64,000 nucleotides of DNA. Source: Chiloscyllium plagiosum. Lineage: Eukaryota. The notes beneath the pieces are model-generated. The model was not told the DNA's origin, did no database searches, and was given only the letters and a program-made list of their open reading frames with translations. Positions 2,378 through 53,698 of the stretch are shown here, piece after piece. The stretch lies in NCBI RefSeq assembly GCF_004010195.1, contig NC_057748.1, positions 6,271,653 to 6,335,652 on the forward strand, read 5' to 3'. Both the position numbers and the translations under genes were made by a program. The stretch's first letter is position 1. Each line of letters opens with the position of its first letter.

Positions 2378-2414
2378 CAGGGTGGAGACTGATAATATAT
2401 CAGCTAAGTGAACC

Positions 2415-12039: not shown

Positions 12040-12342
<303 letters not shown>

Positions 12343-12435
12343 TCAGACACCAAGTGGGATTGCAAGACCCAACACAGCCAGGGCCGAGCTCCTCCTCCCC
12401 CCCCACCACCACCCCTCCCCACCCCCCAACCCTGG

Positions 12436-13037: not shown

Positions 13038-13478
<441 letters not shown>

Positions 13479-15535: not shown

Positions 15536-15571
15536 CTAGATGGTAGAACAAGTGTGAGAATCTGAATGTTG

Positions 15572-15932: not shown

Positions 15933-15934
15933 GG

Positions 15935-16662: not shown

Positions 16663-17181
16663 GACATTACATTAAAATCAAAGTCAGACCACTCAAGAGA
16701 GCATTTGAGAAACACTTCCTCACTCACTCCTACCAAGAGTCGGTACTCGTTTTACCAAAAATTTAAAGTCTAAGATTAATTTTTTTTTTGCTAGGTCAAG
16801 GTTATTAAGGAATATGGAATCAAAGTAAGTTATTGAAGTCATAGATCAGCCACAACCTTGGTGGATAGTGGAAAAACATGAGAGTCTGAATGTTGTGTTC
16901 GAGTGAGTCAAAGCAAAAATGGTCTCTCCTTAACCTGGAGTGCTGAGGTCAGTTATAACAATTTTGGTGAGAACTACTGAAAGGTACAAGAGTGTGGGAT
17001 GCAGGTTAATACAGTAAATGAACTGCCCTCCCTTTATTTATGGACCTCTTCAAAGATGGTCACAACTGAATGCTCGCTGTGCTGGAATCTCAAAACCGGT
17101 TGCTACAATTATGCTACACAGTAGTTTTAAAAAAAAACTCAAAGCTTCTCATTCACTTTTCCTAACGTTCTGAAAGCTTCA

Positions 17182-17319
<138 letters not shown>

Positions 17320-18609: not shown

Positions 18610-19076
<467 letters not shown>

Positions 19077-19384
19077 TTATCTAAGCTTAGTGCTTCTGTG
19101 ACTGACATGGATGCACAACGCTGAAATCCATGCTCCCAGTAACCGGTATTATTGACTTGAGATGCAATAACTACAAGATTGAAGGAGAAATTGCTTTTAA
19201 AAAATACCAGAGAACGAGGACAAACTGGACAGTGGAAACTACCAAAGAAGAGGCAAAACAATGCCAATGGCCCAACTAGGGCTTTGGAGAGAATGAACAT
19301 TTGTGCCACATCAGCCACCTGTCAGACCAGTGAAAATCAAACAGGTCAAAGCCAACAAATATGAAATAGAAACAAAATTGAGAC

Positions 19385-19905
19385 AACAATTCTGATCTCC
19401 CTGCTATAGGAAAGATGTCGTGAAACTTGAAAGGGTTCAGAAAAGAATTACAAGAATGTTGCTGGGGTTCGAGGATTTCTTCTCTCGGGACAGGCTGAAT
19501 AGACTGGGGTTATTTTCCCTGGAGGGTTGGAGGCTGAGGGGTGACCTTTTAAAGGTTTATTATATCATGAAGAGCATGGATAGGTGAATAACCAAGGTCT
19601 CTTCCCTGGGGTGGGGGAGTCGCAAACAAGAGGGCATGGGTTTAAGGTGAATGGAGAAAGATTTAAAAGGGATGTAAGGGGTAACGTTTTCATGCAAAAG
19701 GTGGTGTGTGTATGGGATGAGCTGCCATAGGAAATGGTGGAGGTTGGTACAATTACAGCATTTAAAAGGCACCTGGATGGGTATATGAATAGGCAGGGTT
19801 TCAAGGGATATGGGCCAAGTGCTGGCACATGAGACTAGATTAATGTATGATATTTGGATGAGTTGGACCCAAGGGTTTGTTTCCATACTGTACAATTCTA
19901 TGTCT
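19385..19905 (+). mobile_element. CR1 LINE 3' fragment
   Basis: YRKDVVKLERVQKR.TRML.G..., conserved 3' tail. Confidence 0.85.
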
Positions 19906-20223
19906 GTGTTTGGAGCACAGTTTGCCAATGTATCAGGAAAGGGATGTTGATATCTGGACCACAGGCTGTAGTTTAGTCATACTGTGTTTGAGACACATGG
20001 GGCTCACGAAATACAGTAGAAAACTTTTTGACCTATGAGCACCACGGTTATGACAGCAGGGACAAAAATAATTAAAATAAAGAGGCAGTAAAATAGCAGT
20101 AACGTGCAGTTTGCTAGGATTTTTCACCCAGGCCACAACAGATCCGACAGCTATGATGATGATTTGGGTTGTGAAATCCCACATGGCAGTGAAGGATGTG
20201 CGTACAAGGGTTATACAAAACAT

Positions 20224-20430
20224 AGGAGAAAGTGAGGACTGCAGATGCTGGAGTACCAGAGTTGAAAAATGTGGTGCTGGAAAAACACAGCAGGCCAGGC
20301 AGCATCCGAGGAGCAGGAGAATTGACGTTTCGGGCATAAGCCCGATTCCTGAAGAATGGCTTATGCCTGAAACGTCGATTCTCCTGCTCCTCGGATGTTG
20401 CCTGGCCTGCTGTGTTTTTCCAGCACCACA
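20224..20430. mobile_element. Penelope-derived hairpin element, family A
   Basis: Inverted arms of about 70 bp; hammerhead core CTGAAGA(20349)...GAAACGTC on +; perfect 15 bp TSD ttatacaaaacatag (20211-20225, 20431-20445). Confidence 0.85.
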
Positions 20431-20934
20431 TTATACAAAACATAGCACAGGTTAATAGTATTTTTCTTTCTGCCTCTCATGCTGAGCTTTAGGCTGCAAT
20501 TGAAAGCTTGCTTGATGATTGGTTACATTCACTTTGCGTCCAACACTGCATACTCATCCTTCCCATGATGCAGGCAGCAAGCTGGTGGACCTCTGTTTGT
20601 GTGTTTCAGAAACAGTGTCAATCAAATCTAGCCAGATGAACATTGTAAGTATGTGTTATAGCAAGGTATGCAACCTGGCAGCAGAGCATTAAATCTGAGC
20701 CTGATTCCACTTTCATCTTAATTTCACAAAATGTTTTAGTTGGCAGGAAGGGGTGTTAGGAAGTTGAAGTTAACGAATAAAGACTAGGTGGGAGTCCAGG
20801 TTCAATCTCCTTTCATCTCAGCCTACAGGTTCCAAGATCAACTGAAGTGACACTGCCACTGGGAAGCCTGAGATCAGCTTGCAGAGCAGACACAGCCCTG
20901 CACTCAGTCGATGGCTATCTTTTGGAGGTACTGT

Positions 20935-21489
<555 letters not shown>

Positions 21490-21949
21490 TTAATTTCAGT
21501 TTTGTTTTCCCATTCACACCCACCTGGTTTCCTGAGGTAGCGGTGCATTTTTACCAACTCAGTGAGCCTACGTCAGCATTGTAAACAAGTTATTCTGTCA
21601 GTGTTAGAAATGCAGGCTTCTTTTGCAGCTCCAGAGATGATGGAGAGGAGTTGGTACATGTCACAATACATCTGAAAATAGGTTGATTAAAATAGAAAGA
21701 GCTGGGTTCTGTGAGGACACTTTTGGAATAGTGGTAGTGTCCCTACCCCTGGGCCAAGAGGTCTGAGTTCAACTCCCCACCTGCCCTGGATGTGCGTCAC
21801 AACATGTTGGAACAGGGTGATTAAAACAGCTGCTAAGAGTTGGGCTCCTTCCTCTTCAAATCCATTTTAATTCCCTATCCTTCCCTCTCATCACCCCTGC
21901 TGGGCACTGCTTGTATAAACAACAATTTACTGGTGACAAGGGTTATTCA

Positions 21950-22165
21950 GTGGAAGACACCTGGGAATCACTTGTCCAAGATTTCCCGAAGTGGAGGAGG
22001 AGCATCCGGGAAGGTGTTGAAAAAGCAGAACGCACACCTATTCCCGGAACCACCTTCTGTTCCAAGTGTTACAGAGCCTGCGGCAGCTGCGTCAGCCTGT
22101 ACAGCCATCTACGGACACACCCTAAGAATGGGAGAGAGTCATCTTCATCTGCAAGGGACCTCCAA
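21950..22165 (+). mobile_element. RTE-clade LINE 3' end
   Basis: DTWESLVQDFPKWRRSIREGV...CSKCYRACGSCVSLYSHLRTH, the C-terminal C2H2-like motif of RTE ORFs. Confidence 0.75.
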
Positions 22166-22875
22166 TGAAAAAGTGCAAGTTTTAAAACAAAACAACTGCT
22201 TCCTTGTAAGACTTCTGCGGTGTAGCGGTAGTGTCCCTACCTTTCAGCCAGAAGGTCCAGGTTCAAGTCCCAACTTCAGAGGTATGTTATAACACATCTG
22301 AATATTTGGGTTCCCACCACTTCCAATTCCATTTTACTTTAATCCCTCAGTCTTTCCCTACATTTCCATTTTGTTAATTGTGCCTTTTACTTAGTGGGCA
22401 GTGCTTTAACTTATCAATTTAATGGTGATATTGGTGTTTTGAAAAATAAGGATTCACTTACTGACACCAAGGAGAAAGAATGCTATTCCCCACAGAAACG
22501 CACATGCGCATTAACATATGCATCTGTGAATGGGAAAGGGATTGGGCAAGGACAGGACCACAGGCGAGGAAGGAAGGAGCATCAGACTCCATCGTTACCC
22601 CCCCATCCATATTCTCTTCACAGTACCCCCCCACCCCCTTACATTCACTCATCCAACCCTCCAGCCTCATCCATGCCCTGCCCCATCCTTCCAACCTCAT
22701 TCATTCTCAACTCCCTACAGTAAACTCCCCCACCCAAAAATTCATATTTTGGAGAGACCCTCTCCCCTACCAATCCTAGAGACCTTTTCTTCTGCCGAAT
22801 CCTGTTTCAATGTCACATTTGTTCTGTGTTTAAGCACAGTGTGGGCTTTGTACATAACACAAAGACAGAGGGTTT

Positions 22876-25475
22876 TACCTGATCAGGCATTCCCCAAGAC
22901 GTTGTGGGAAGCCAGGGCAGGGATTGCTGGGCCCCTTACAGAGATATTTGTATCATTGACAGCCAAGGGTGAGATGCCGGAAGATTGGAGGTTGGATAGT
23001 GTGGTGCCATTATTTAAGAAAGGCGATAGGAAAAGCCAGGGAACTATAGACCAGTGAGCCTTATGCTGGGTAAGTTGTTGGAGGGAATTCTGACAGAAAG
23101 GAATTATTTATTTGAAAGGCAAGGAATGATTAGGGACAGTCAACATGGCTGTGTGCATGGGAAATCGTGTGCCTCGAGATTTGGTGTTGGGTACACTGCT
23201 TTTCGTTATTTATGTAAGTGATTTAGAGTCATAGAGATGTACAGCATGGAAACAGACCCTTCAGTCCTACCCGTACATGCCGACCAGATATCCCAATCCA
23301 ATCTAGTCCCACCTGCCAGCACCCGGCCCATATCCCTCCAAACCCTTCCTATTGGTATACGTATCCAAATGCCTCTTAAATGTTGTAATTGTACAAGCCT
23401 CCACCACTTCCTCTGGCAGATCTTTTCACACACGTACCACCCTGTGTGTGAAAAAGTTGCCCCTTAGGTCTCTTTTATATCTTTCCCTTCTCACCCTAAA
23501 CCTATGCCCTCTAGTTCTGGACTCCCCGACCCCAGGGAAAAGACTTTGTCTATTTATTCTATCCATGTCCCTCATGATTTTGTAAACAACTAGAAGGTCA
23601 CCCCTCAGCCTCCGACGCTCCAGGGAAAACAGCCCCAGCTTGTTCAGCCTCTCCCTATAGCTCAAATCCTCCAACCCTGGCAACATCCTTGTAAATCTTT
23701 TCTAAACCTTTTCAAGCCTCATAATATCTTTCCGATAGGAAGGAAGCCAGAACTACATGCAATATTCTAACAGTGGCCTAACCAATGTCATGTACAGCCG
23801 CAGCATGACCCCCCAACTCCTGTACTCAATACTCTGACCAATAAAAGAAAGCATACCAAACGCCTTCTTCACTATCCTGTCTACCTGCGACTCCAGTTTC
23901 AAGGAGCTATGAACCTGCACTCCAAGGTCTCTTTGTTCTGCAACACTCCCTAGGGCCTTACCATTAAGTGTATAAGTCCTGCTAAGATTTGCTTTCCCAA
24001 AATACAGGAATATACTTTCTCTGGATTCTTGCTATCTCATTTCTGAAGGCTTCCCATTTTCCAGCCATCCCTTTAACTGTGAACATCTGCCTCCAATCGG
24101 CTTTTGAAAGTTCTTGCCTAAAACTGTCATTATTAGCCTTTCTCCAATTTAGAGCTTCAACTTTTAGATCTGGTCCATCCTTTTCCATCACTATTTTAAA
24201 TTTATTAGAATTATGGTCAATGGCCCCAAAGTGCTTCCCCACTGACACCTCAGTCACCTGCCCTGCCTTATTTCCCAAGAGTAGGTCAAGTTTTGCACCT
24301 TCTCTAGTAGGTACATCCACATACTGAATCAGAAAATTGTCTTGTACACACTTAAGAAATTCCTCTCCATCTAAACCCTTAACACAATGGCAGTCCCAGT
24401 CTATGGTTGGAAAGTTAAAATCCCCTACCATAACCATCCTATTATTCTTACAGATAGCTGAGATCTCCTTACAAGTTTGTTTCTCAATTTCCCTCTGACT
24501 AGTAGGTCGTCTACAATACAATCCCAATAAGGTGATCATCCCTTTCTTATTTCTCAGTTCCACCCAAATAACTTTCCTGGATTTTACTTGGATGTGAATA
24601 TAGGAGGCATGGTTAGTACGCTCGCAAATGACACTAAATAGGTGGTAAAGTGGACAGTAAAGAAGACTATCTCAGAGTACCAATGGGATCTTGATCAGAT
24701 GGAGTTTAATTTAAGTATATGTGAGGTGTTGCATTTTGGTAAGACAAACCAGGGCAGGACTTGTACAGTTAATGGTAGAGCCCTGGGAAGTGCTGCTGAA
24801 CAAAGAGACCTTTAGGTGCAGGTGATCAGTTCCCTGAAAGTGGAATCGCAGGTAGACAAGGTGGTGAAGAGGTGTTTGGAATGCTTGTCTTTATTGGTCA
24901 GAACACTTGAGAATAGGAATTGAGGCATCATGTTGCAGCTGTACAGGACAATGGTGAGGTCACTGTTAGAATACTGAATTCAATTCTCATCACCCTTCTA
25001 TAGGAAGGATGTTGTTAAACTTGAGAGAGCGCAGAAAAGATTTGCTGGGAATGGAGGGTTTGAGTCACAGGGACAGTTTCAGTGTTGTTCCCGGGAGCGT
25101 CGGAGGCTGAGCGATGATCTTACAGAAGTTTATAAAATCATGAGGGGCACATATAAGGTGAATAGCTAAGGTCTTTTTTCTAGGGTGGGGGAGTCCAAAG
25201 TTTTAAAGTGAGAGGGGAAAGATTTAAAAAGAACCCGAGGGGTAACTTTATCACGCAGATAGTGGTGCTTGTATGGAATGAGCTGCCAGAGGAAGTGACG
25301 GAGGCTGGTACAATTACAACATTTAAAAGGCATCTGAATGGGTGAATGAATAGGAAGTGTTTAAGAGGGATATGGGCCAAATGCTGACAATGGAATTGGA
25401 ACAGACTGGGATGTCTGGTCGGAGCGGACAAGTTGGACCGAAGGATCTATATTCGTGCTGTATGATTCTATGATT
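22876..25475 (+). mobile_element. CR1 LINE (host), split at about 23225/24582 by a younger antisense CR1
   Basis: PEDWRLDSVVPLFKKG..PGNYRPVSL, then after the insert LDVNIGGMVS..ANDTK through to the 3' tail. Confidence 0.8.
23226..24581 (-). mobile_element. Younger, internally deleted CR1 LINE nested in the host CR1
   Basis: Endonuclease region (24004-24580) joined directly to the post-RT C-terminal region (23226-24003). Confidence 0.85.
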
Positions 25476-26486
25476 CTCTAAACACAAGTTTCTGAGTGAA
25501 TGCGCACACACAGTTGCTCTGCGGATACAGTGTCAACAGACACTGCCTTAAGAAACAGCTGGTTCCCACTCTTTCCAATTCCATTTTGATCTTGCCTTTC
25601 CCTTTTTCACTACCCTTTGGTTTTATTGCACTGTCCCAGTGGTCAGTGCCTGTAATTCGTTAGTTGTTTAATTCGTGAAACTGGCAATTTAAAATTGAAA
25701 TTGAAAGTTTATTATGACCCCCCCCAAACTCCATTTTGATTCAGTCCCATCCATTGTTTCAGCCTCTTTTTGTTATTGTTACATTGCCCTGGAAGGGTGT
25801 GTAATTTGATTACAGGGTGATCGGGTAATTTGGTGATCAGTTAAACTGTAAAGAAAAGTGCTGAGTTCCTACAGCTCCCAGTGAGCAGTGTTTGTGTAAT
25901 TTGTTAACTAGGGATTTGGTAGTTTGATTTTCTTAGAAACAGATGGCTTCTTTTTCGACACAGAAGGGCCAAAAAGGAAAGGTAGAAACTGGTGTTTGTT
26001 TTAGACTATAGATTTACAATAAAACTCTTGTAAATCTCTGAAAGACATTTGCTGCCTAATTTAACATCTGCAACTATAAACAATTTAACAGTCCAGTGTA
26101 ATCCAACAAACACACACAGAAAGATATCATCTAGTCAGTCACTAACAACATCTTCTCCAATTTCTCCTCTTGCTCTTCAAGGGGAAGGGTGTGGTGGACT
26201 TCAATGAAAATCTCAATAGGATCTACGTGTGTGTGTGTGGGTGAAGCTTCCTTCCCTCCACCCTAACCACTGAAAACTGCCACTAAATGTTAACATGCAC
26301 ACTGATATTTTCAGTAGGAGCTTCTCATAGAAACAGAAAATAGGAGCAGGAGTAGGTCTACTCCGCCATTCAATGTGATCACCCAACTCAGTAACCTGTC
26401 CCCTCTTTGTCTCCTTTGATCCCTTTAGCTCCAAGAACTATATCTAACTCATTCAGTGTCTCAGTTCTCCAGCAGCTAGGGTTTTA

Positions 26487-26654
<168 letters not shown>

Positions 26655-27495
26655 TTAGTTATATCAGACAGCTGTTAAAAACCTTGGGCTCCATCCCATA
26701 TGAAGTAGTACAATTTAATTTTAAAAGAATTGAAGTTGCTCCCCCAACCAGGGCCTACTAACCAACACAAAAAAGCGATCAAAATTAGGACATTACTCAT
26801 CCCTGTGGCTCGACCACATCTGTGACCCATTGGACAAAATGAAACTCTCAGCCATAATGTCATCACCCGCGGAAACAGAAAATCAAAGTCAAGTTGGACT
26901 GAGGGGTCTGTTTCTGTGCTGTATAATTGTGACTCCTTTTCACCAGGCTTTTGTTATGTTCCTGTTCAAGCAGCATTTACAGAAGGGTTGTGACTAAAAC
27001 ATGACTGCAATAGCAGCATCAGATAGAGAGATATTGTTCAGCAAGGGGGTGAAACCTTGTCGTGGACACGGACAGGAATGTGGATTTCTGGTTACGATCA
27101 GAGCAGCTATCGTCTTCTTAAACATCATAGCTGGCTCCAGGCTCAATCTTGCTTCTCGTTCAGATGTCCAACATCTGGAAGTGCATGTGCTTTGGAAAAT
27201 AGCTACCTGAGCAGATGGCAAGATCACCAATAGGGGATACCTCCTCGAGGACAGTACAAAGGGAAGTAGGCAAGTTGCAGCACCACTTACATAACGATAT
27301 ACATAGCTCCCTCGCAGAACTTCAAGTTATTACACTAACTTCAAAGGCAACACTGATCATCTTTATATGTTGCTGCAGCTCAGATAAGGGGTTGGCAGAG
27401 AAAGAAGAACTGGAGAAGGTTGAGAATAGAACAACCGGGACGGGCAGGCAATGCAGACCATCCGAGGGAACAATCACAATATTTCTCATCAGTTA

Positions 27496-27645
<150 letters not shown>

Positions 27646-28122
27646 TTATGCTTCTGGCCAATCTCCAAGAATTATGTCAGAACTGGGGAATGGGAAATAG
27701 GACAAGAAAGGAATGAGATGCAGTGGCAATGTTACTGGATGAGTAACCCACAGGCCCAGGCTAATGGTCTGGGAACACTATTACAGCTGGTAGAATTCAA
27801 ATTAAATTAATAAATCTTAAATTGAAAGGCTAGTCTCAGTTATTTATCATGCCATCATTAACTGCTGTGAAAATCTATCCAATTCATTCATGCCTTTCAG
27901 GAAAGAATTCTAACACCCATACCTAATCTGGATTACATGTAACTCTAGGCCCACAGCAATGTGGATAACTCCTAATCACCCTCTGAAATCTTTTAGAGAG
28001 CTAATCAGGTCAAGGAAAATTAGAAAGGGACAAGACACGCAGGCTTTGCCTATGAAAGAATGAAGGAAAAATATAGTTTTAAGCCTATTGAATTATAAAA
28101 TTTCTCCAACTTTGATTCATCA

Positions 28123-28242
<120 letters not shown>

Positions 28243-28497
28243 TTAAATTAGTACAAGATTTTCATGGACCAACTGTACACAATTGCAGCTGCACCCTTCT
28301 ACTGCTTCACAAGCTTCATCATATAGCTACAGCACTTGCAAATTCTAACTGTCCCACATCAAAATCTGGTATCCATCTGTTTATATCACAGTATCTTCCT
28401 CCAGCATTAACGGGCATTCAAAAGTATGGGTGAGGACTCAAAAACAACACAAGGAGGGACTTATTTTGAAGTCGAGGGAAGATTTCCCTGTTGTTGC

Positions 28498-28530
28498 CGA
28501 GTGAGTGAGTGAGTGAGTGAGTGAGTGAGT

Positions 28531-28565
<35 letters not shown>
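28498..28565 (+). repeat. Compound microsatellite (GAGT)n(GA)n
   Basis: Read directly from the sequence. Confidence 0.95.
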
Positions 28566-28567
<2 letters not shown>

Positions 28568-29267
28568 GCTGACTGACTGAACAGAAGGCACATAAACATG
28601 GGCACAGAGAGGAACATAAGCACTCTCCAATACTGTAACATATGCTTCTCCCAGTAAGCAAAGATACACCGTGTAGTTTGTTAAAGAATGGACAAAGGGA
28701 GAAAAGCCAACCTCTCTCTCTCTCTCTCCAGCAATATTGTATTTGCACAATGAATAAACATCAATTTCATTCACAGTCAGATGTGTGAGAACATTACTGA
28801 GGCCAAATCTCGCAGGCTCCTGATTGGTAATTAAGCCTCTCACCTTCATAATTTGATACACAAAGATGTCACTTTTGGTTCTGACCATTACTTAACTCAT
28901 TTTTGAAACTGCCTACCTTACTGCCCAACAAATATTCTGATTCATAAGGATCTGCCAACAACTCATGTCACACAAGTGTAGATACATTGTAGAACAATAT
29001 TGATCTTTTTCCAGAGAAACATAGTACTGATCATCAATGAGCAAAAGTAAAAGGATGAGCAGTTTGAGTTTTACTGTATGGAAGTAGTCTTGATTTCAAT
29101 ACAGTTGGGGAACAGAACAATAGTGTAGGACAGCACATCTACAGCTCAGGGAACAAGAGAGGATTGGTTCAGAGGAACAATGACCTTAGTAACATTGATA
29201 TAGCAGAAACACAGCAACGATTGGCTAGTATAACACTCTCTTAAACAAACAAGGCAGGCTACGCTTA

Positions 29268-29477
<210 letters not shown>

Positions 29478-30019
29478 TCAGACAGATGTTACCGAAAAAT
29501 GCAAGACACCAAATGGAAAGATTAATCCTAAGCATTATTTCAAGCTAAACAATAACTGCGGGATATGGTCAGAAAATGAGTAAAAAGTTGAGGAAACACT
29601 TCTTTACGAAGACTGATAAAAGAATGATCAAGGTAAGGTGGGTGCAAGATCAGCCATTGCTCAAGAAGTAATTACAAATCTCCACAAGCATTCAAGCAAG
29701 ACTCCTGCAAACTTGAATCCAATGGACTGGACACTGTCTGAATAACCAAGAGGTATCACCCCAACGTGTCTTAATTTTTTCCCGATTCTCATTCCAGAGG
29801 AGGATAAATAAAATACTTTGAAATCACTGCAGTATGGCAGTAGTGACATTAGTAACTGGAAGGAATTTAGAACTGTTCAGAATGATTAGGACTTGTCCAT
29901 CAAGTCACAAGTTCAAATATTTTAATAGAAGCAAAGTGACAGCAGAGAACAACAAGCAGATCTTGCATTCGCAATCCCACTACCTTGCGAGATACCCTGT
30001 GACCTTGTGTCCAAAGGTC

Positions 30020-30642
30020 AAGATGTGTAGGAGCCAGTGTTGGACTGGGGTGGACTAAGTTAAAAATCACACAATACCAGGTTATAGTCCAACAGGTTTA
30101 TTTCGGATCACTGCTCTTTCATCAGGAGCTGTGGAACGGGATCATAAGACACAGAATTTATAGCAAAAGATTAGCTATCATGCAACTGAAATGATATATT
30201 AGATTAGATTCCTTACAGTGCAGAAACAGGCCCTTCGGCCCAACTAGTCCACACTGACCCTTCGAAGAGTAACCCACCCACACCAATTTCCCTCTGACTA
30301 ATGCACCTAACACTATGGGCAATGTAGCATAGCCAATTCACCTGGCCTGCACATCTTTGAACTGTGGGAGGAAACCGAAGCACCCGGAGGAAACCCACGC
30401 AGACATGGGAAGAATGTGCTAAACTACACACAGACAGTCACCCAAGGCTGGAAACGAACCTGGGACCCTGGTGCTGTGAGGCAGCAGTGCTAACCACTGA
30501 GCCACCGTGCACCTGGACAAACTTAGATTGCTGTCTTATGATCCTGTTCCACAGCTACATAATGAAGTAGCAATGCTCCAAAAGCTAGTGCTTCCATTTA
30601 CATCTGTTGGACTATAACCTCGTGTTGTGTGATTTTTAACTC
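30020..30642. mobile_element. Penelope-derived hairpin element, family D, with an HE1 SINE inserted (30200-30510)
   Basis: Arms agttaaaaatcacacaataccaggttatagtccaacag...ctgttggactataacctcgtgttgtgtgatttttaact; degenerate hammerheads. Confidence 0.75.
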
Positions 30643-30882
30643 AGTCCATGAAAACTGATGGCAGAAACTCATACATCCAAGTAAACTTCATCCTCAAATC
30701 AACAGACAGCTGGCAATTTGATTCAGATGAGGTGGTACCTCATGTTTATACAAGAGCTGACTGGACCAATTGTATTTATTTCTATTACATTTTAACAGAA
30801 AGTATCAAGTGGGAATTGTTTGGAGATGTTGCTGAGATATCATCAGGTACATTACAAAGTCAAGTATTTCTGAACAACTTCA

Positions 30883-31104
<222 letters not shown>

Positions 31105-32154
31105 TCAGGATACATCCACAGCTCACAAAATAGGCAAGCCTGGTGCCCTGGGTCACAGGTAACTGCATGCTTGGCAGTGGTGTGAGATGGGGAGGGGCCT
31201 GCGAGATGGAAAGTGAAAATATCTGCAGAGCAATGCAGGCACTTTGTCGCTCCCTCTGGGAAATATCTGTATACTCAGGATAACAAGCCTGCAAATCCAC
31301 AGACCTGTCTGTTCACTGATCAGGGTCTCAAACATCCTTCCCCAGCATCTACCAACTCACTGGTGCTTCTCATTTTTGATTAATCAATGCAGGCCTGCAG
31401 TTGTGCTCTCAAACCTTTGAACGCAGTATCCCTTTAAACATAGAATTCCCAGCCCAAATGTCCTGTTACAGCATTTGCTACTTATGGGAGTGTAGCACTA
31501 CCACTATAGGAAATATTGATGCAACTACTGAAATAACAGGCTATGTCAGTAATAACCCAATGAACAGACTAAATAGAAGGGAGATGAGCCTTCAGCCTCT
31601 CTCACATCCAGTTTGGTGAGGGAACTCCAATTTGATGGGTTTTTTTTAAAGCAGTGCTGACGGGCACACATTACCGACTCACATCCTTCATTTCCTTTCA
31701 TGCTCTTTTCAAATATCTCTTCTGTGCTCACACAGATGAGGGAATAATCCTGAGGAATGGAATACATAAATATTAAGAACCTCAGGCTTTTCTTCAGTAT
31801 TATTTCCCAGTCATGATCAGTAGGGTTCACGGCACTGCAATGTTTACCACACTCTGCCCTACGTGTGACATTTTCCTTATGTGTGATCAGTTGCCAGACC
31901 TAATGCCAACATCCACTACAAACTGGTCAAGGTGGACAAACTAATTTCACAAGTCACTTGATCAGAAAACTTAACACTTCCTTCCAATATCACCTGCTTA
32001 AACGCAGCAAACTGACAAGGATAAATGGCTTAGAGAATAAATGGCCAGTCTTGGAGTCAAGTTCTGGATTCAATGCTAACCAGTGACCTCTACCGGAAAA
32101 TTAATTCACACAAGTATTAGGCTTGATAATGGAGTGGCAGAGAGTCAAATATTA

Positions 32155-32365
32155 AGTTAAAAATCACACACCACCAGATTATAATCCAATAGATTTATTT
32201 GAAAGTTCAAGCTTTCGGAGCAGTGCTCCTTCGACAGGTAGTTACATAATGAAGGAACAGTGATCCGAAAGCTTGTACTTTCAAATAAACCTGTTGGACT
32301 ATAACTTGGTGTTGTCATTTTTAACTTTGTCCATCCAGGTCCAACCTCAGCACCTCTACACCATG
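32155..32365. mobile_element. Penelope-derived hairpin element, family D
   Basis: Inverted arms with degenerate hammerheads; short flanking repeat gagtcaaa. Confidence 0.75.
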
Positions 32366-32537
32366 GGAGTCAAACAGGCTGCTTCAAGGACAGCCATTTG
32401 GAAGAGGTACAGGAAACACTGTCAGCACAGATGGAAATGTACCTAACTTACACCAATAGGAAAGAAACTTGCTGAGAAGTTGTGTTTGTGTTCTAGTATG
32501 AGGACCCAGCTTCAGATCAAGCTACTGCAAGGAACTA

Positions 32538-32669
<132 letters not shown>

Positions 32670-33909
32670 TTATTACAAATTATTGAATTTTACTCAATTT
32701 AATTTTACATTCAACAACCTGATTTTTTAAATAAAGTTTTGATGTTGATTGTGACTATGAAACACAGGTGTATGCACAGCAGACGACACGTCTAAAGTTA
32801 GTTGAATTTGAAATAGACCAGGCGATGCTCTCCCAGTATCTCAGTGGTAAAAGCACTACCTGATGGACATAAGATGGGCCCAGTTTAGAATTTTCAGATG
32901 ATTCTCAGTGGTTGATGGTGGCTCAGTGTTCAGCACTGCTGCCTCACAGAAACCAGTGAACTCTAGGGTCACTGTCTGTGTGGAGTTTGCACGTTCTCCC
33001 CAGTGTCTGCATGGGTTTCCTCTGGGTGATCCGGCTTCCTCCCACAATCCAAAGATGTGCAGGTTAGATTGACTGGCCAGGGGAAATGCAGGGTTACAGG
33101 GATAGGGTAGGGTGCTGGGTCTGACTGGGGTGCTCCTCGGAGGATAGGTGTGACCTCAATGAGCTGAATGGCCTGCTTCCACACTATAAGGATTGTATGA
33201 TTCCTGTTAGAGTACAAACTAAGTCTTAAAATTGGCTCCAAAAAGTCACAGTAAAAATTAGGTGTGCCCTTTGGTCTCCATGACTCTGACTACCCAGCAC
33301 TCGGGCACATAGCTCACTAACATCTACTCGATTAGGTCAGTGTCTTGCAACTGGGGATCCCACCCTAAAAGGGCCCTATGCAATTTTCTGGTCCCTCGCT
33401 CAGCATTTCTTTCACTCAAGCACAGGATTTCGATTTCCACACTTCTCAGGGAGGATAAGAATCAACAGTAAATGGGACACATCCTATACAGTCTGAAAAC
33501 ATTCATCCTCCACTGCTTTGCAACTTCCATTGTGCATACAAAAGGGTGCAGCTGCTAATTGATACAAGACCCCATTAATGGCACCAGCTCAACAAATAAA
33601 ATCCAAACCATCCGAAGAGTGAAGTGCATGTAATTAAAATAATAATTTAAATAATTTTGAATTTCCATTCATTTGATAGTATTTTACTTTGTTTCCCTCC
33701 TAGCTTTATAAAGCTGGGACAGAAAGAAGCTTGGGTTCCCAATGGAGTTTCCAATATGTAATGGAGTTACTTAACTCAAAAAAAAACATTGAAAAGCAGT
33801 GGGTAGGAGGCTCAGTAGGGCCTATGTGGGTGACCACTGGAAAGATGTCTACACTCCAGCAGTGGAGGAAAGAAACTAAACAGTGGATAAATTTTAAAAA
33901 CAAGCATAC

Positions 33910-33964
33910 CGATTCTCTCTATCCTGGTGACATCTCTAACTTCAGGAACCTTTGTTGCTGTGGT
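33910..33964 (-). CDS. ruvbl2: RuvB-like 2 exon 2
   Basis: TTATKVPEVRDVTRIERIG; acceptor tttcag, donor gtatgc. Confidence 0.95.
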
Positions 33965-34589
33965 CTGAAAGTCAATATGCACATATTGAAAAAGGGACGA
34001 GTTTTAATTATAGCATAAAATTTGACAAGCAGGTCACACAGTAACTTAAAGGCACAACACAACTGAAATCAATAAACATCTTTTCCTCGAATGATGGTTT
34101 GTAATACATTAATACTACTCTCTTACCAATGTTATCTACGTTATACAATTCAGTATCAACTGTTTGAATCTCTTATCTCAACTAATGTCAGACTGTGGGT
34201 TGATACATGGAATGGCAACTACAACACTTGTACGGTTTTGCCAGAATCTTGACCACTCTGAAAGAAGTGCAAATGGCACCCTCTTGTCTCTGCAACCCTA
34301 GTGGTTCCTTGTTTAAATCCTGCTTTTACAAGACTGAAGTTCAGAGTGGGAGCTGTAGGCCAGACAAAAGGTCACATTTCAGCAACGGAACAACTTGATG
34401 TTTTGATTCAGATCTCTCGAGCCACAATCAGAAGCAACTGCTTCGTGCAGTTGATGGCCCCCAGTCTCCTAGACAGAAAATCATGGGCTCAATCCTCACT
34501 CCAGGGCCTGAGCACTCAGTCTACACTGACATTTCAGGTAACTCCCCTAAAGTTAGACATGGCAGGAGTGGGGGGTCAATATTCAAAAC

Positions 34590-35250
34590 GGTGAGGAAAG
34601 TAGAGTCGCAGGTAGATAGGAGAGTGAAGATGACGTTTGGTATGCTTTTCTTTATTGGTCAGAGTACAGATCATGTTACGGCTGTAAAGGACATTAGTGA
34701 GGCCACTTTTGGAATATTGTGTGCAATTCTGGTCTCCCTCCTATCAGAAAGATGTTGTTAAATTTGAAAGGGTACAGAAAAGATTTACAAGGATGTTGCC
34801 AGGGTTGGGGGATTTGAGCTATAGGGAGAGGCTGAACAGGCTGGGGCTGTTTTCCCTGAAGCGTCGGAGCTGAGGGGTGACTTTATCGATTTATAAATTC
34901 ATGAGGGGCATGACAAGTCCATAGACAAGGTCTTTTCCCTGGGGTGGGAGAATCCAGAACTAGAGGGCATAGGTTTAGGGTGAGAGGAGAAAGATATAAA
35001 AGTGACCTAAGAGGCAATTTTTTTCATTCAGAGGGTGGTATGTGTATGGAATGAGTTGCCAAAAGAAGTGGTGGAGGCTGGTACAATTGCAACATTTAAA
35101 AGGCATTTGGATGGGTATATGAATAGGAAGGGTTTGGAGGGATATTGGCCAGGTGTTGGCAGGTGGGACTAGGTTGGTTTGGGATATCATGTCAGCATGA
35201 ATGAGTTGAACCGAAGGGTCTATTTCTGTGCTGTACATCTCTGACTATGA
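34590..35250 (+). mobile_element. CR1 LINE 3' fragment
   Basis: KVESQVDR.VK..FGML.FIGQ; LVRPLLEYCVQFWSP; conserved 3' tail. Confidence 0.85.
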
Positions 35251-35308
35251 GGTGCTATCAGAGAGGGGGCTACTCAAACAGGTGGGGGAGCGGCCGGGGG
35301 CTATTCAA

Positions 35309-35955
35309 NNNNNNNNNNNNNNNNNNNNNNNNNNNNNNNNNNNNNNNNNNNNNNNNNNNNNNNNNNNNNNNNNNNNNNNNNNNNNNNNNNNNNNNNNNNN
35401 NNNNNNNNNNNNNNNNNNNNNNNNNNNNNNNNNNNNNNNNNNNNNNNNNNNNNNNNNNNNNNNNNNNNNNNNNNNNNNNNNNNNNNNNNNNNNNNNNNNN
35501 NNNNNNNNNNNNNNNNNNNNNNNNNNNNNNNNNNNNNNNNNNNNNNNNNNNNNNNNNNNNNNNNNNNNNNNNNNNNNNNNNNNNNNNNNNNNNNNNNNNN
35601 NNNNNNNNNNNNNNNNNNNNNNNNNNNNNNNNNNNNNNNNNNNNNNNNNNNNNNNNNNNNNNNNNNNNNNNNNNNNNNNNNNNNNNNNNNNNNNNNNNNN
35701 NNNNNNNNNNNNNNNNNNNNNNNNNNNNNNNNNNNNNNNNNNNNNNNNNNNNNNNNNNNNNNNNNNNNNNNNNNNNNNNNNNNNNNNNNNNNNNNNNNNN
35801 NNNNNNNNNNNNNNNNNNNNNNNNNNNNNNNNNNNNNNNNNNNNNNNNNNNNNNNNNNNNNNNNNNNNNNNNNNNNNNNNNNNNNNNNNNNNNNNNNNNN
35901 NNNNNNNNNNNNNNNNNNNNNNNNNNNNNNNNNNNNNNNNNNNNNNNNNNNNNNN
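35309..35955. other. Assembly gap in ruvbl2 intron 1 (other gaps at 49832-49988, 59331-59488, 60197-60375)
   Basis: Runs of N. Confidence 1.
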
Positions 35956-36380
35956 GGGGGGGCGGTTGGGGGAGTTTCGGGGTAAAAGGGGGTGGGACGG
36001 GGACCGGGATCTCGAACCTTCTGCGGCCGCGCGGCTCCTTCCCTCGCCCGGTCCCGGCTGAATGATAATGACGTTCCCCTCTCTCCCCCACCCCCGGGGG
36101 GGGTCTCTGTCTCTGTCTCTGTCTCTGTCTCTCCCTCCCCCGTCGGTGTCTGTATCTTCTCCCTCCTCCCTCCTCACCGTTGCCATGCTGCTACCGCCAC
36201 CGGTCTCCAACCGCCGACAGCACTTCCGGTTGCACCACCCGCCCGCCTCCGACCAGGAAACAAAAGCAGAGAAACTCAGTTCCGGGCCATTCCCCACCTA
36301 CCCACAGCCTAAACGTCATCACAATCAACAACAAATTGTATATACCATACTCTAGCGCCTGTAACGCAACGAAACCTCCC
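35956..36380 (-). promoter_or_regulatory. CpG-rich promoter/first exon region of ruvbl2
   Basis: Local CpG enrichment; ETS/GABP-type ACCGGAAGTG at 36221-36230 (-); TGACGT half-site near 36314-36319; no obvious TATA box. Confidence 0.75.
36178..36186 (-). CDS. ruvbl2: RuvB-like 2 exon 1, coding part (MAT)
   Basis: agcATGGCAACG|gtgagg in a CpG-rich region; all 15 exons join in frame to 1389 nt (462 aa plus stop). Confidence 0.9.
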
Positions 36381-46513: not shown

Positions 46514-47935
46514 CTAATATTCTGGGGACACTAACCAATCAGGGAGCTTGCTGTACACAAATTGGCCGCTGTGATTCCTACTGTCCAAACTTCAAAAGCA
46601 TGCTGTGGGCTATGGGGGGTTGGATATGGCACGGTGGCTTAGTAGTTAATACTGCTGCCTCACAGCGCCAGGGACCTGGGTTTGATTCCCGTCTTGGGCA
46701 ACTGTCTGTGTGGAGTTTGCACATTCTCCGCGTGGGTTTCCTCTGGGTGCTCTGGTTTCCTCCCACAGTCCAAAGATGTGCAGGTCAGGTGAATTGGCCA
46801 TGCTAAATTGCCCATAGTGTTCAGGGATGTGTAGGTTAGGGGCATTAGTCTGGTGAAATGTAGAGTGATAGGGGAATGTGTCTTGGTGGGTTACTCTTTG
46901 GAGGGTCAGTGTGAACTTGGGCTAAAGGGCCTGTTTCCACACTGTAGGAATTCTATGGTTCCAAAGGTTTTGGAGGTGCTGTAGAAATGCAGGATGTTCC
47001 TTTTAGTCTTTAGTCACCCATTAATGGAATCCATCAGTGTGAATGCCTCCAGGTATCCTTCCAGGAGAGATGATCACCTCATAGTTTTACTGCTGGACGG
47101 TTAATGCAGAGTCCCAGGTGATGTTCTGGGGACTTGGTTTGGATCCTGCCATGGCAGATGGTGGAATTTGAATTAAATAAAAATCTGGAATTAAGGGTCT
47201 AACAATGACCGTGAAACCATTGCCGATTGTGAGAAAAAAGCCATCTAGCTCACTCATATCTTTTATGGAGGGGAAACTGACATCCTTACCTGGTCTGGCT
47301 GATATGTGAGTGGGTGGCACTGTGGGTGGTATGGAGTGTCAGGGACCTGGGTTCAATTCTACCCTTGAGCGATTACCTGTGTGGAGTTTATATATTCTCC
47401 CCGTGTCTGCGTGGGTTTCCTCCCAAAAGATGTGCAGGTTAGGCTGGATTGGCCATGGGAAATGCAGGGTTACAGGGATCGAGTCGGGGGTGGGGGGATG
47501 CTCTTTGGTGGGCCGGTGTGGACCCGATGGGCCAAATGACCTGCTTCCACGCAGTAGGGGATTCTCTTACAACATTTAAAAGGCATCTGGGTGGGTATAT
47601 GAATAGGAAGGGTTTAGAAGGATATGAGCCAAGGGCTGGCATATGGGATTAGATTGTTTTGGATATCTGGTCGGTATGGACAAGTTGGACTGAAGGGTCT
47701 GTTTCCATGCTGTACACCTCTATGACCTTTAACTGCCCTCTGGGCAATTAGAGATAGGTAATAAAGGCTGGCCTGGCCAGTGATGCTTTCATTGCGTGAG
47801 TGAGTTTAAAAAAAGGATATGATGCTAGAATTGCAATACGGAGCGATCCATTATTGTGTCTGGTCTTCCTCCATCTTTGGCCCTCAGGGTGTCAAGAAAC
47901 CACAGGGTCGGGTCCAAGGGGATAGCCACAGCACC

Positions 47936-48437
47936 ATGAGTCCCTGGATGCACTTGGTCCCTGCAATGCTGCTGTGCAGCCTCTCCTCTGCCTCTGTGGC
48001 CCCCTCAACAGGCAACACCAGCCTCACCATGTTCTTCACTGTCAACACCACTGTCGATTCCACTCTGAGAGCTTCAAGCAGTTCCTCAGCCAACGAGAGC
48101 GCGACGTCAAACCAGACCGAGGCCTCCCCAAGGAACGCTACCATCCCTCTTGATGGCTCCTCCACCGCCGACAGCCAGATGCCACCCAGCACCGAGGGGC
48201 CACGTGACACACCCCCAGCGGTGCAAACCGAGAGCTCCGGGATTGGGACGGACACCACCGTGAAGCCGACCGGTCAGAACACTGAGCCTTGGCCTACTCC
48301 TCACGGGCCTGAGGAGACTCCGCCGTCCGCAACCCCGTCCAGGATGTCCAGTGGGTCCCCACCCAGTCAGACTGGAGCACTGGCAGGAACCACCTGGGAA
48401 ACCGGGCACCTCTCTTGTGAACCCTCCGCTGTTCCAG
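47936..48437 (+). CDS. Mucin-15-like transmembrane mucin, coding exon 1 (signal peptide and Ser/Thr/Pro-rich ectodomain)
   Basis: Acceptor ccctcag|47888; Kozak gcaccATG at 47936; signal-peptide-like MSPWMHLVPAMLLCSLSSA; five N-glycosylation sequons (NTS, NTT, NES, NQT, NAT); donor G|gttaagt, phase 1. Confidence 0.85.
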
Positions 48438-48749
48438 GTTAAGTGCCATTTTGTTTGGGGGCCATTTTAAGTTCAATCGAACTTGCATTTTCCTAGCACC
48501 TTTTATCACCTCGGGACGGCTCAAAGTGCTTTTACAACCATGATGTATGGTCATTGCTGCGTAAGTTAGAAGGAGTGGCTGACAATTTGCGCACAGCAAG
48601 CTCCCATAAATAGCAATGTGCACATTCATTACAAGAACTGGAGCAGGAGTTGGCCATTCAGCCCCTTGAGTCTGCTTCATTATTTAATATGATCACGTCT
48701 GGTCCCATCTCAGCCTCAACCCCACTTTCCTGCCCATGCTCTATTGCTG

Positions 48750-49650
48750 GTCATAGAGTCATTCAACACTGAATCAGACCCAACAAGTCCATGCAGACCA
48801 TGTTCCCAAACTAAACTAGTCCCACCTGCCTGCTCCTGGCCCATACCCCTTCAAACCTTTCTGATTCATGTACTTATCCAAATGTCTTCTAAATGTCATG
48901 ACCGTACCTGCATCCACCACTTCCTCTGGAAGTTCAATTCACACATGAACCACTCTCTGTGTAAAAACGTTGCTCCCATGTCCTTTTTAAAACTTCCTCC
49001 TCTCACCTAAAAAATATGTCCTCCCTAGCTTTGAACTCCTCCACTCTAGGGAAGAGATGCTTGTCATTCACCTTATCTATGCCCCTCATGATTTTATAAA
49101 TCTGTGTAAGGTTAACCCTCAACCTCCTACAGTCCAGTGAAAAAAATCCCAACCTATCCAGCCTCTCCTTAAACCTCAAAACCTCCATTCCTGGCAACAT
49201 CCTGGTAAATCTTTTCCAATTTAATAATCTCCTTGCTATAACAGGGTGTCCAGAACTGCACACAGTTCTCCAGAAGAGGCCTCACCAACATCCTGTACAA
49301 CCTCAACATGGCATCCCAACTCCTATACTCAAAACAATGAAGGAAAGCATGCTAAATGTCTTCTTAACCACCTTGTCACCCTGTGACACAAATTTCAAAG
49401 AATAATGTATCTGAACCCCTCGGTCTCTCTGTTCTACAACACTATCCAAAGCCCTACCATAACTGTAAAAGGCCTGCCCTTGTTTGTTTTACCAAAATGC
49501 GATACCTCACATTTATCCAAATTGAATTCCGTCTGCCATTCCTCAGCCCATTCACCCAATTGATCAGATCTATTCACAACCTTAGGTGACCTTCTTCACT
49601 GTTCACTGTTCGCCTATTTTGGTGTCATCTGGAAGTTTTCTAACCATACC
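48750..49650 (-). mobile_element. CR1 LINE 3' fragment
   Basis: KRFTRMLPGMEVLRFKERLDRLGFFSL..., EFNLDKCEV motifs. Confidence 0.85.
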
Positions 49651-51795
49651 ACCACCCCACCAAACACCTCGACCCCGCGCCCTCCCCCACCACCATCAGC
49701 CATCATTTCTCTAGTGAGACAGAAGCCATTTGGTTCTCTGGGACAGTGGTGACTTCGCCTTTACGAATTAACCTAGGAGGTGAGCCATAGGAAGGAGACT
49801 ATCTCTCCTCATCTGATTCTTTGGCCCATAANNNNNNNNNNNNNNNNNNNNNNNNNNNNNNNNNNNNNNNNNNNNNNNNNNNNNNNNNNNNNNNNNNNNN
49901 NNNNNNNNNNNNNNNNNNNNNNNNNNNNNNNNNNNNNNNNNNNNNNNNNNNNNNNNNNNNNNNNNNNNNNNNNNNNNNNNNNNNNNNNGCATGTGTGTGT
50001 GTATCTGAGTTTGTGTGAGTGTGTGTGTGTGTGTGAGAGAGAGTTTGTGTGAGAAAGGGAGTGTATGCAACAACCTGACCAATGGTCCCTCATTGTAAGG
50101 GATTACCCCTCACGTTGAATCCCATATTCTTGAGGATGGCACAGGGAGACTCTGCCAGGTAAGCTTCAGTGATTGGAGCCAGTCTGGATTGTCCAACAGC
50201 ATTGTTGTGACTCAACAAGGTAAGTGGTGGATTTGAGATGATTTTAATCCTCATCCTTTGCTTCCCACTAATCATGGCCTCAATATCACCCATCTTCCTG
50301 CTCTCTTGTGTTGAAACACAGCTCCAGGTCTCACTGGCTACCTCCTCACCCCTAACTCTCACGGTCACAATTCCCCACCCCATCCCCAACGATCACAGTC
50401 ACCCTGGGAGAGGGAGCGGATCCTGATTTGATTGAACCTAATGCTGTGTCCCCTTTGGGTCACAGAGAGACTCCTGTGATGTCGAGATGGTGAGCATTGT
50501 TACACCATAAAGACTGGGTGCTGGCTGTGAAACTCGATTGGGTGGACTCTGAGATGTAACGGTCATGATAGCCTGTAAGGGGAAAGGTCTCCGGTCACAA
50601 GGCAAGAGGTAAATCAGGGAAAGGTTTGGGTTGGTGGTGACGTGAGATTATCACTGGACTGTCATTTCAGAGAAAGGGGTTTGAATCCCACCAAGATAGT
50701 TGGCAAAATCCAAAATCTAAAAATCACAAAAAGTTAATTTAACGATGAATTTTTAAAAACTTATTTCTTTTATTCACTGAGTGAATATTCAGCTAGGCTA
50801 ATGTTGATTGCCCATCCCTAATTGCTCAGAGGTCAGTTAAGAGTCAACCATGTTGCTGTGGGTCTGTAGTCATGTGCAGGCCAGACCAGGTAAAGGTGAT
50901 AGTTTCCTTCCATAAAGGGCATTAGTCAGCCAAATGGGTTTTCCCCCAACAATTAACAATGTTTCTAATAATTAGCAATGGTTTCATGGTCATCGTTAGA
51001 TTCGTAACTCCAGATTTTTATTGAATTCCAATTCCATTCTCTGCCATTTGAACTTGGGGCCCCAGAACATTACCTGGGTCTCTGGATTAACAGTTCAACG
51101 ACAATACCACTAGGCCACTGCCTTCCCTTGATTCATTGATATCCTTTAGGAAAGAAAATTGCCATCCTTCCTTGGTCTAGCCTCCAGATCCACAGCAATA
51201 TAGCTAATTCAGCTGCTTAGTTCAAGGGCTTTTATTCATTCATTAGATGAATAATCGGCTAGGTTAGAGTTTATTGCCCAGAGGGCAGTTAAGAGTCAAC
51301 CACATTGCTGGAGTCACATGTAGGCCACACCAGGTAAGGATGGCAGTTTCCTTCCCTAAAGGACATTAGTGAACCAGATGGGTTTTTCCTGGTCATCATG
51401 AGACTCTTAACTCCAGATTTTTTATTGAATTCAACTTCCAACATGGTGGGATTTGAACCCAGAATATTAACTAGGTCTCTGGATTAACGGTCCAGCGCTA
51501 ATACCACTAGGCCATCACCTCGCCTTAACGAGCTGGAAATTATTGCCTATGAGGGTGATGGAAACTGAAACAATAAGTGATTTCTGGATGAATTCAGATG
51601 GGCACACCAGGTTAAACAAACTTGAAAGACTATGGGGATAGAGATTGGGACTGCTCAGAATACTGTGCAGGGGAGCTTGCACTGAATTAATGGACTGAAT
51701 GGCCATTCTCTGCCATAATTCCTCTGTGAGCGTAAGTCTTTGGGAGGCTGAAAGATGATCTTGAGAGATGATTGACATTGTGACTTTGGTTTTAG

Positions 51796-51966
51796 GACAG
51801 AACAACCCGGAAACCAAGAAGAAGGGACAGTTTGGGAAAACACTGGGGATCTTCATTGGTTTAGCGGTTGTCCTGCTTCTGGTGTTCGGGCTGGTCTACT
51901 TGATCTACAACAGGACTCAAAAGGATGACCCGTTCTCACACCAAAGGCTCTACAACAGCGACCCAG
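51796..51966 (+). CDS. Mucin-15-like, transmembrane exon
   Basis: tttag|GA CAG...; QNNPETKKKGQFGKTLGIFIGLAVVLLLVFGLVYLIYNRTQKDDPFSHQRLYNSDP; donor G|gtacga; 171 nt, phase 1-1. Confidence 0.88.
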
Positions 51967-53434
51967 GTACGAGAGAACTGGCCAGGCTACAAAATTGGGC
52001 CTGTGCCTCCAGGCTTTTACCACATTGGGTTGCCAACTCTGGCTTTGGGGTGTGGGGGGAGTAGTGTCGAGGTAGCGTCACTGCCCTCGTAATCCAGGCT
52101 GCCAGACCAATGTCCTATGGTCATAGGTTCGAATCCCACCGTGGTAGGGTTATGCTGTGGGGAGAGAGGGCGGAACAAGGCATTGGTGAGCCTGGGAAGG
52201 GAAGTGGCTCCCAGCTGGCATTGCTTTGACCCCAATGTCCGGTCTGTCAATCAAGTACTGACCTCTTTGATAAAAGGACAGCCTCCACCCCAGCAATATG
52301 TCAAGCTGACCTTGGGGTACTCTGCCACCATGATGTGGGCTTTTTGCCTTCAGTGGGGATAACCAGACAAAACTTGTGTTACCTCCTGTGACACAAGAAT
52401 TGGACACTGCTAATATAGGACAACGGTTGTATATTTTTGGCAGTACAAACCTGATGGGCCAAAGGGTCTTTCCTCTGTACTGAATGATTCTAATGGGTGG
52501 TTATCGCAGCCCGTTGTTAGGTAGGGGGACATGGTGGCTCAGTGGTTAGTACTACTGCCTTACAGTGCCAGGGAACTGGGTTTGATTCCAGCCTCAAATG
52601 ACTGTCTGCATGGACTTTGCACAGTCTCCCCGTGTCTATGTGGGTTTCCTTCAGGTGCTCCAGTTTCCTCCCACAGTCCAAAGATGTGCAGGTTGTGGTG
52701 GACTGGCCCTACTAAATTGCCCATAGTATCCGGGGATATGCAAACTAGGTGGGTTAGCCATGGGAAATGCAGGGTTATAGGGTGGGTCTGGGTGGGATGC
52801 TCTTTGGAAGGTCTGTAAGGAATGAATGCCTTGCTTCCACAATGTAGAGAATCCTCTAAAACGGATAAGTCCTTTGGTGTCTGAGCTAATACTGAGCTAT
52901 TTGGTTTCAAGCTTCAACCTGCACCTATCATGCTTCAAGTGGCCCCAGTTAAGATGGTCACTGAGACTCCCTCCCCCTTGGGTTGTATTTCATGAGATGA
53001 TGATGCTATCATGACCATGTCTCTTAAAGGTGTACTGCATACTCTCTGTGAGAGAGAAGACTGCAACAGGATAGCAGCTATTGAGCTATCAGATTGGCCT
53101 GTAGATGGCCCTTTAAGTAGTCCTTAAGCGGCCACTTAAAAGTCTTTAATTGGTGGCTGGGCAGGAGGGTTAACCTTGGGCCTTCCCAGACAGGACTTAA
53201 TTCTGGTGTAGGCGGGAAGGTTTTTCAACCAGTACCCCTGCCTAATTAAACACCTCCAAGAATAGAAGATTTTGCCTGGGGTGTGTCAGATAGAGAGTGC
53301 AGTCCAAGTTTGGAGATGGCTGAGGTATTTTTACTTATGACAGCAGTTAAGCTAATGAGGCTCCAGTCACAGTAAGGGGAGAATTGCATGTTGGAGATCT
53401 TTCACTATTTTTTTACTCATCATCTTGCTCCTAG

Positions 53435-53649
53435 TTCTTAGCCTTGATGTTACGGTGGAGCCCCCGGACCGGTTCTATGGGAGTCTGACCCCTGACCTCG
53501 GCCGAGAGGGTCAGGGGAATCATGTGACCTCACAGAAAACGCTGAATCAGCCAATGGGGGAGGTGAAAAATCCAGCGTCTCCACCTCAAACCCACGACGA
53601 GATTCAGCTGAAACCAATGTCCGAAAGCTCAGTGAAGATATTTCTCTGA
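53435..53649 (+). CDS. Mucin-15-like, cytoplasmic tail exon
   Basis: ctcctag|TT CTT AGC...; VLSLDVTVEPPDRFYGSL...DEIQLKPMSESSVKIFL*; joined CDS 888 nt = 295 aa plus stop. Confidence 0.85.
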
Positions 53650-53692
53650 AATGTATTTTATGTTTTTCTTTAAACTCAGCAGCAATGGTGCA

Positions 53693-53698
53693 AATAAA
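53693..53698 (+). terminator. Candidate polyadenylation signal of the mucin-15-like gene
   Basis: AATAAA 44 nt after the stop codon. Confidence 0.55.

Follow-up and report, generated by a model that had tools for sequence, protein, structure and literature searches.

What is the mucin-like gene that stands beside an lhb-type gonadotropin gene in the shark Chiloscyllium plagiosum, and does it have a human counterpart? We examined 64,000 nucleotides of contig NC_057748.1 (assembly GCF_004010195.1, positions 6,271,653 to 6,335,652 of the forward strand; this whole stretch is referred to as the window, and its first letter is position 1). A preliminary description of this DNA had proposed a MUC15-like transmembrane mucin that was the LHB-side ohnolog of MUC15, kept in sharks and absent from the human locus. 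The window contains an intact three-exon gene, called here the gfy-like gene, in which we see most likely the shark counterpart by orthology of GFY (Golgi-associated olfactory signaling regulator, or Goofy) and likely a twin of MUC15 from whole-genome duplication. By analogy with mouse Goofy, its product would assist Golgi trafficking in chemosensory neurons of the nose; taken as a whole this reading appears quite probable.

The gfy-like gene is real: it is intact and spliced, and its three coding exons encode a type I membrane protein. Exon, intron and composition analysis confirmed the 295 aa product with a serine/threonine/proline (S/T/P)-rich ectodomain, transmembrane (TM) helix and tail that had been described. 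The start codon lies at 47936 in the context GCACCATGA, and a splice acceptor ahead of it at 47887/47888 suggests, from the sequence, an upstream non-coding exon. Both introns are GT-AG, in phase 1 and 1. The elements of the gene are as follows.

47936..48437, + strand: coding exon 1 (502 nt), predicted to encode the signal peptide and an S/T/P-rich, N-glycosylated lumenal stalk; it matches database protein P0001 and its orthologs.
51796..51966, + strand: coding exon 2 (171 nt, phase 1-1), with the TM helix and the cytosolic F-x-H-x-R-L-Y ... D-P motif.
52528..52872, no strand assigned: high-copy repeat resembling a short interspersed nuclear element in intron 2, outside the gene product; three runs have very high contig depth here.
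53435..53649, + strand: coding exon 3, with the V-L-x-L-D motif, the remaining cytosolic tail and the stop codon.
53693..53698, + strand: polyadenylation signal AATAAA; the contig of run X1 ends at 53744.

The protein has a hydrophobic N-terminus, an ectodomain that is 47% S/T/P with five N-glycosylation sequons, and a single strongly hydrophobic helix at about residues 183-205; most of it is disordered stalk and tail. Residues 11-295 are identical to P0001 (XP_043535198.1, 'mucin-5AC-like'), a match that is not independent, as this record may be an annotation of the same assembly. The junction 51966->53435 that the preliminary description had predicted was spanned by one contig each in runs X1 and X2 (two of the four runs compared over 51700-53760), which come from a related species and whose status as RNA is a guess. 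These contigs join exon 2 directly to exon 3 and show no intron depth except over the repeat, and the X2 contig extends upstream of exon 2 by about 587 letters. Exon coverage was nil in runs X9 and X7 (2% of X7 was read). When the transcript-like contigs of the related species were compared with the exons, 7 of 10 differences were synonymous.

The closest named relatives of the gfy-like gene are amphibian GFY proteins. A profile of four elasmobranch TM+tail sequences, run against a library of 1.84 billion representatives, returned 25 matches: the four elasmobranch proteins, a coelacanth 'mucin-15-like' protein (63 bits), nine frog proteins named GFY by NCBI (42-55 bits), an unnamed salamander protein, a lungfish protein, three MUC15 proteins (36-40 bits) and six unrelated repeat proteins. 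These last six were dropped, being repeat proteins with many weak stretches (one was looked up by name). The shark profile thus ranks GFY above MUC15, and held-out profiles gave the same order when the TM+tail of the gfy-like protein was scored: 57.7 bits with 10 named GFY proteins and 68.9 with 14 GFY-side proteins of bony vertebrates, against 41.3 with seven MUC15 proteins. MUC15 proteins themselves scored 24-34 bits with the profile of 10 named GFY, and none of 500 shuffles reached the GFY or MUC15 profile scores.

Two TM+tail trees without an outgroup (27 rows, 126 columns; seven MUC15 sequences, the genome's own included, and 20 GFY-side rows) separated the MUC15 sequences from the GFY side with support of 99.8/100 in one and 100/98 in the other. 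Near-duplicates, fragments and extra frogs had been excluded (P0002, P0005, P0008, P0011, P0023, P0026, P0033-35, P0037, P0039, P0040, P0043-47). The gfy-like gene fell outside the MUC15 clade, together with the GFY-named amphibian proteins. The GFY side followed the species tree, from elasmobranchs through coelacanth, lungfish and salamanders to frogs. The idea of a paralog kept only in sharks was not supported. Sharks have both GFY-side and MUC15 genes, as do bony vertebrates; our searches showed no homolog from cyclostomes or amphioxus.

The GFY side and MUC15 are related to each other, as the preliminary description had supposed for the shark protein. With the TM removed, a tail-only HHalign comparison between the GFY side and MUC15 gave a probability of 98.1 and an E-value of 8e-14 over 44 columns. 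The common core reads F-x-H-x-R-L-[YHF], then D/E-P-V-L-x-L. Like MUC15 (PF15672), the gfy-like gene has three coding exons in phase 1,1, a TM exon ending in D-P, the F-x-H-x-R-L-Y and D-P-V-L-x-L motif and the same slot in the sister paralogon. It differs in forming a separate clade, in scoring below the Pfam cut-off, in lacking the G-A-I-L-G pattern of the MUC15 TM, and in not being nested: MUC15 lies antisense within ANO3 (11p14), whereas none of the 69 anoctamin matches lies on C39, the contig that carries the window. If GFY and MUC15 were unrelated single-pass S/T-rich proteins, their likeness would be compositional or convergent. Most GFY-side proteins do lie under the Pfam Mucin15 cut-off of 27 bits (three of six family members score 22.8-25.4), and two ESM Atlas searches gave only leads, all scoring under 0.9. 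Yet such convergence is scarcely credible against the tail-only similarity, the shuffles, and the matching intron positions and paralogon slots. Moreover, X. laevis GFY (28.2 bits) and the coelacanth protein (28.8 bits) pass the cut-off, so the databases already hold hints of a GFY-MUC15 link.

A separate canonical muc15, the existence of which had been left to be checked, was found in the same genome. Pfam Mucin15 has two matches there, at C16:9,734,098 (56 bits, the true muc15) and on C6 (18 bits). The C16 gene is 81% identical to catshark 'mucin-15' and lies on the minus strand inside a plus-strand anoctamin gene (anoctamin matches 9,702,692-9,817,794), 211 kb from an FSH-beta-type gene. 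It has coding exons of 760 nt and 171 nt followed by a tail exon, again in phase 1 at both junctions, and so repeats the layout of the gfy-like gene; the equal 171-nt TM exon is partly chance, as the alignment has an indel there. The nested antisense position of shark muc15 (C16:9731100-9738986, minus strand) means that this overlap is older than the split between sharks and bony fishes.

Shared exon phases and an equal TM exon could also be read as the mark of a shark-specific duplicate or a translocated copy of muc15. Of all the explanations weighed, this is the least credible: a clade of the gfy-like family with shark MUC15 was rejected (approximately unbiased test, p-AU 0.004), the TM exon is 37% identical to that of the genome's own muc15 as against 50-57% to the coelacanth and frog GFY-side proteins, and the gene sits in a collinear paralogon. 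Two neighbours of the gfy-like gene lie in the window as had been described.

889..6078, + strand: lhb-type gonadotropin beta gene (Cys_knot; coding exons 889-1051 and 5848-6078), a synteny marker.
12040..36186, - strand: ruvbl2 (TIP49 in two exons), with its ATG at 36186 and an approximate 3' end.

The LH label of the first gene is our assumption from sequence motifs and synteny, its C16 paralog being of FSH-beta type; the TIP49 gene is presumably ruvbl2 rather than ruvbl1. It and the gfy-like gene are arranged head to head, with 11.7 kb between start codons. A VGLUT gene lies 56 kb downstream of the gfy-like gene on C39, on the minus strand and convergent. Against VGLUT2, the last exon of the C16 VGLUT copy scores best, with 185 bits, followed by C39 (137) and C19 (102), and the C39 gene is therefore, by exclusion, probably VGLUT1 (slc17a7). 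All five paralog pairs compared between C39 and reversed C16, namely an L27 exon (probably lin7), a neurotrophin, gonadotropin beta, gfy/muc15 and VGLUT, keep order and relative strand, for which the probability by chance is about 0.0005 with the reservation that the pairs were picked from known markers and not blind. We take the neurotrophins to be of NT4 and BDNF types, from their motifs.

The collinear pairs together with the tree position bear out an LHB-side ohnolog of MUC15, and we have little doubt that GFY and MUC15 are ohnologs from the vertebrate genome duplications that share a cytosolic juxtamembrane motif. This age is very likely because of the MUC15 homology, the separate canonical muc15, the position outside the MUC15 clade and the paralogon collinearity. 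The LH-beta and FSH-beta regions are described as sisters from the second duplication in the accessible part of one study (PMC3280201), and we infer that the GFY/MUC15 split falls in that round; neither the text of that study nor the 10 supplementary files searched mention MUC15.

In the human genome, we take LOC100507003 to be GFY, and the gene strands in its interval are likewise assumed. Excerpts of two sources place human GFY on 19q13.33 (PMC10076756), the same band as LHB, and PTH2, LOC100507003 and SLC17A7 together in a 162 kb interval (PMC13431349). The gfy-like gene is very probably the shark ortholog of GFY, because it groups with amphibian GFY, provides the best match of frog GFY in the genome and has a VGLUT1-type neighbour, human GFY being on 19q13.33; this assignment comes through the amphibian names and the VGLUT1 neighbour. 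The proposed absence from the human locus is thus most likely wrong. It is, like GFY, a type I membrane glycoprotein gene with an S/T-rich stalk and a VGLUT1-type neighbour in the LH-beta paralogon, and differs in having ruvbl2, not PTH2, as its head-to-head partner and, between RLY and DP, in a short deletion, the sequence compared being amphibian.

Several observations weigh against this reading. The trees have no outgroup, were rooted at the midpoint and drew a tool warning on long branches, with the elasmobranch branch at 0.77. The tail alone fails to separate GFY from MUC15 (26.8 and 32.9 bits with GFY-side profiles versus 29.9 with MUC15), and exon 2, although the best of four genome matches of frog GFY, is a weak one (E 0.27). 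As to the expected Pfam similarity, exon 2 reached only 17 bits to Mucin15, and the full protein matched no Pfam family at E<=1. The sequence searches, including the library-wide profile search, returned no mammalian, reptile or ray-finned GFY, so that mouse Goofy is linked to the gene through NCBI amphibian names. A DUF4688 gene stands between the gfy-like gene and VGLUT, and pth2, the other human neighbour of GFY, forms a head-to-head pair with a glycogen synthase gene on C40.

The unrooted trees, the ambiguous tail-only scores, the long elasmobranch branch and the place of pth2 on C40 would also fit a third member of the MUC15/GFY family that cartilaginous fishes retained and bony vertebrates lost, true GFY having disappeared from sharks or escaped detection there; this is the version of the preliminary description, with an LHB-side ohnolog missing in humans. 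We consider it improbable, as the LH-beta paralogon offers a single slot, which in human is filled by GFY, the neighbour is of VGLUT1 type, the TM+tail scores favour GFY, and no GFY-like exon was detected in 120 kb around the C40 pth2 (best 8 bits against 83.6 for the control; 13,978 bases, 12%, are N). Genome searches with Pfam Mucin15, exon 2 (which found only itself) and frog GFY returned no third or fourth family member; these searches are insensitive, each query having missed the other paralog, so that the absence stays open to doubt. Across 803 kb, including an anoctamin region near a TSH-beta2-like gene (C19 49.46-49.60 Mb), a profile that combined the TM exons found only the two known exons above 10 bits.

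The neighbour pairs GYS1/RUVBL2 and PTH2/GFY are the human arrangement. A single exchange or inversion would turn the shark pairs ruvbl2/gfy and gys/pth2 into them, and this would explain the apparent absence of the gene beside human RUVBL2.

Other features of these regions were also recorded. The glycogen synthase and pth2 genes at C40:26.49-26.61 Mb are off the lhb/ruvbl2/gfy contig, and in human 19q13.33 the two shark blocks appear to have been joined and rearranged. A third glycogen synthase gene, besides those on C40 and C23, lies on the fshb/bdnf contig (C16:48.76-48.81 Mb) and is possibly an ohnolog lost in mammals. The DUF4688 gene is a 782-aa open frame (C39:6347493-6349838, + strand) and the sole DUF4688 locus found in the genome; presumably it belongs to the C1orf94 family. 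A fourth neurotrophin (C26:50386884-50387213) is strongly diverged (141 bits versus 160-178 for the other three) and has a long tandem array of 30-base units ahead of it. The TSH-beta2-like gene (C19:49.737-49.740 Mb), 177 kb from an anoctamin, mirrors the fshb-anoctamin layout of C16, and no muc15-like exon was found in that anoctamin region.

Sharks have orthologs of the same layout, and so do a skate and a ray. Among shark and skate orthologs (8 of 75 candidates), residues 181-240 are 82-100% identical and the stalk 24-92% (five compared), and the TM with the first 35 cytosolic residues is strongly conserved, at 92-100% identity among sharks. None of the elasmobranch records seen is named GFY; they are called mucin-5AC-like, sialidase-like, PERK1-like or uncharacterized. 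Orthogroup names are misleading for P0001, P0003, P0006, P0036 and P0013 (mucin-5AC-like, sialidase-like, PERK1-like, SEA-domain protein and mucin-15-like).

What such a protein might do in a shark can be approached through mouse Goofy, which the accessible portions of two reports describe as residing in Golgi membranes of olfactory, vomeronasal and Grueneberg neurons (PMC12677133; bioRxiv 10.64898/2025.12.17.694945). The same portions report that its loss leaves adenylyl cyclase 3 mislocalised and cilia shortened, and that Goofy with Clgn and Rtp1 modestly raises surface expression of odorant receptors. By analogy with the mouse protein, an olfactory Golgi role of the gfy-like protein in sharks is somewhat favoured. 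Its glycosylated stalk would face the Golgi lumen, and the F-x-H-x-R-L ... D-P-V-L-x-L-D motif, as the common ancestral working part, would bind sorting machinery or cargo.

The olfactory neurons of catshark appear to be exclusively microvillous, in a source whose accessible text does not mention Gfy (PMC10116579), and sharks thus seemingly lack the ciliated neurons in which the mouse phenotype lies. This, together with an architecture and TM length like those of MUC15, a tail equally like GFY and MUC15, and transcript-like contigs in two runs whose source tissue is not given, would suit an ordinary cell-surface epithelial mucin, with GFY orthology and MUC15 kinship intact and the Golgi and olfactory role a later specialisation. 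We regard a surface mucin as rather unlikely: in the mouse, Gfy expression extends to vomeronasal neurons of microvillous type (bioRxiv 10.64898/2025.12.17.694945, accessible part), and 92-100% identity of the TM and juxtamembrane tail among sharks would be more than a passive anchor needs. If the Golgi role holds, the shark cargo would be membrane proteins of the V2R/TRPC2 pathway, not ciliary adenylyl cyclase 3; and since sharks seemingly have no ciliated olfactory neurons, Goofy's older job was likely general cargo trafficking. More tentatively, and with somewhat greater doubt than confidence, we propose that GFY, which has been regarded as an orphan olfactory Golgi protein, and MUC15 are the two survivors of one pre-gnathostome membrane glycoprotein, that the cytosolic motif is an unrecognised trafficking signal, and that the ancestral role of Goofy was to deliver cargo in microvillous V2R-type chemosensory neurons, predating its ciliary role in the mouse.

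The gfy-like gene is neither a lost gene nor a new kind of system. No statement of GFY-MUC15 kinship or of a shark Gfy was found in the literature searched, which excluded subscription journals, bioRxiv supplements and orthology databases, and the paralogy is apparently unreported. MUC15 was proposed in 2007 to be mammal-specific and born inside TMEM16C/ANO3 (PMC2151771, in the part available), which the shark muc15 nested in an anoctamin contradicts; muc15 is already a named gene in the current annotation of sharks, bowfin and birds. Two human genes thought unrelated, GFY and MUC15, would thus have a common origin, and one short cytosolic motif, kept in both for more than 400 million years, offers itself as the part to mutate. 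Goofy would extend to cartilaginous fishes, with a nose seemingly without ciliated neurons, which makes the question of Goofy's cargo testable.

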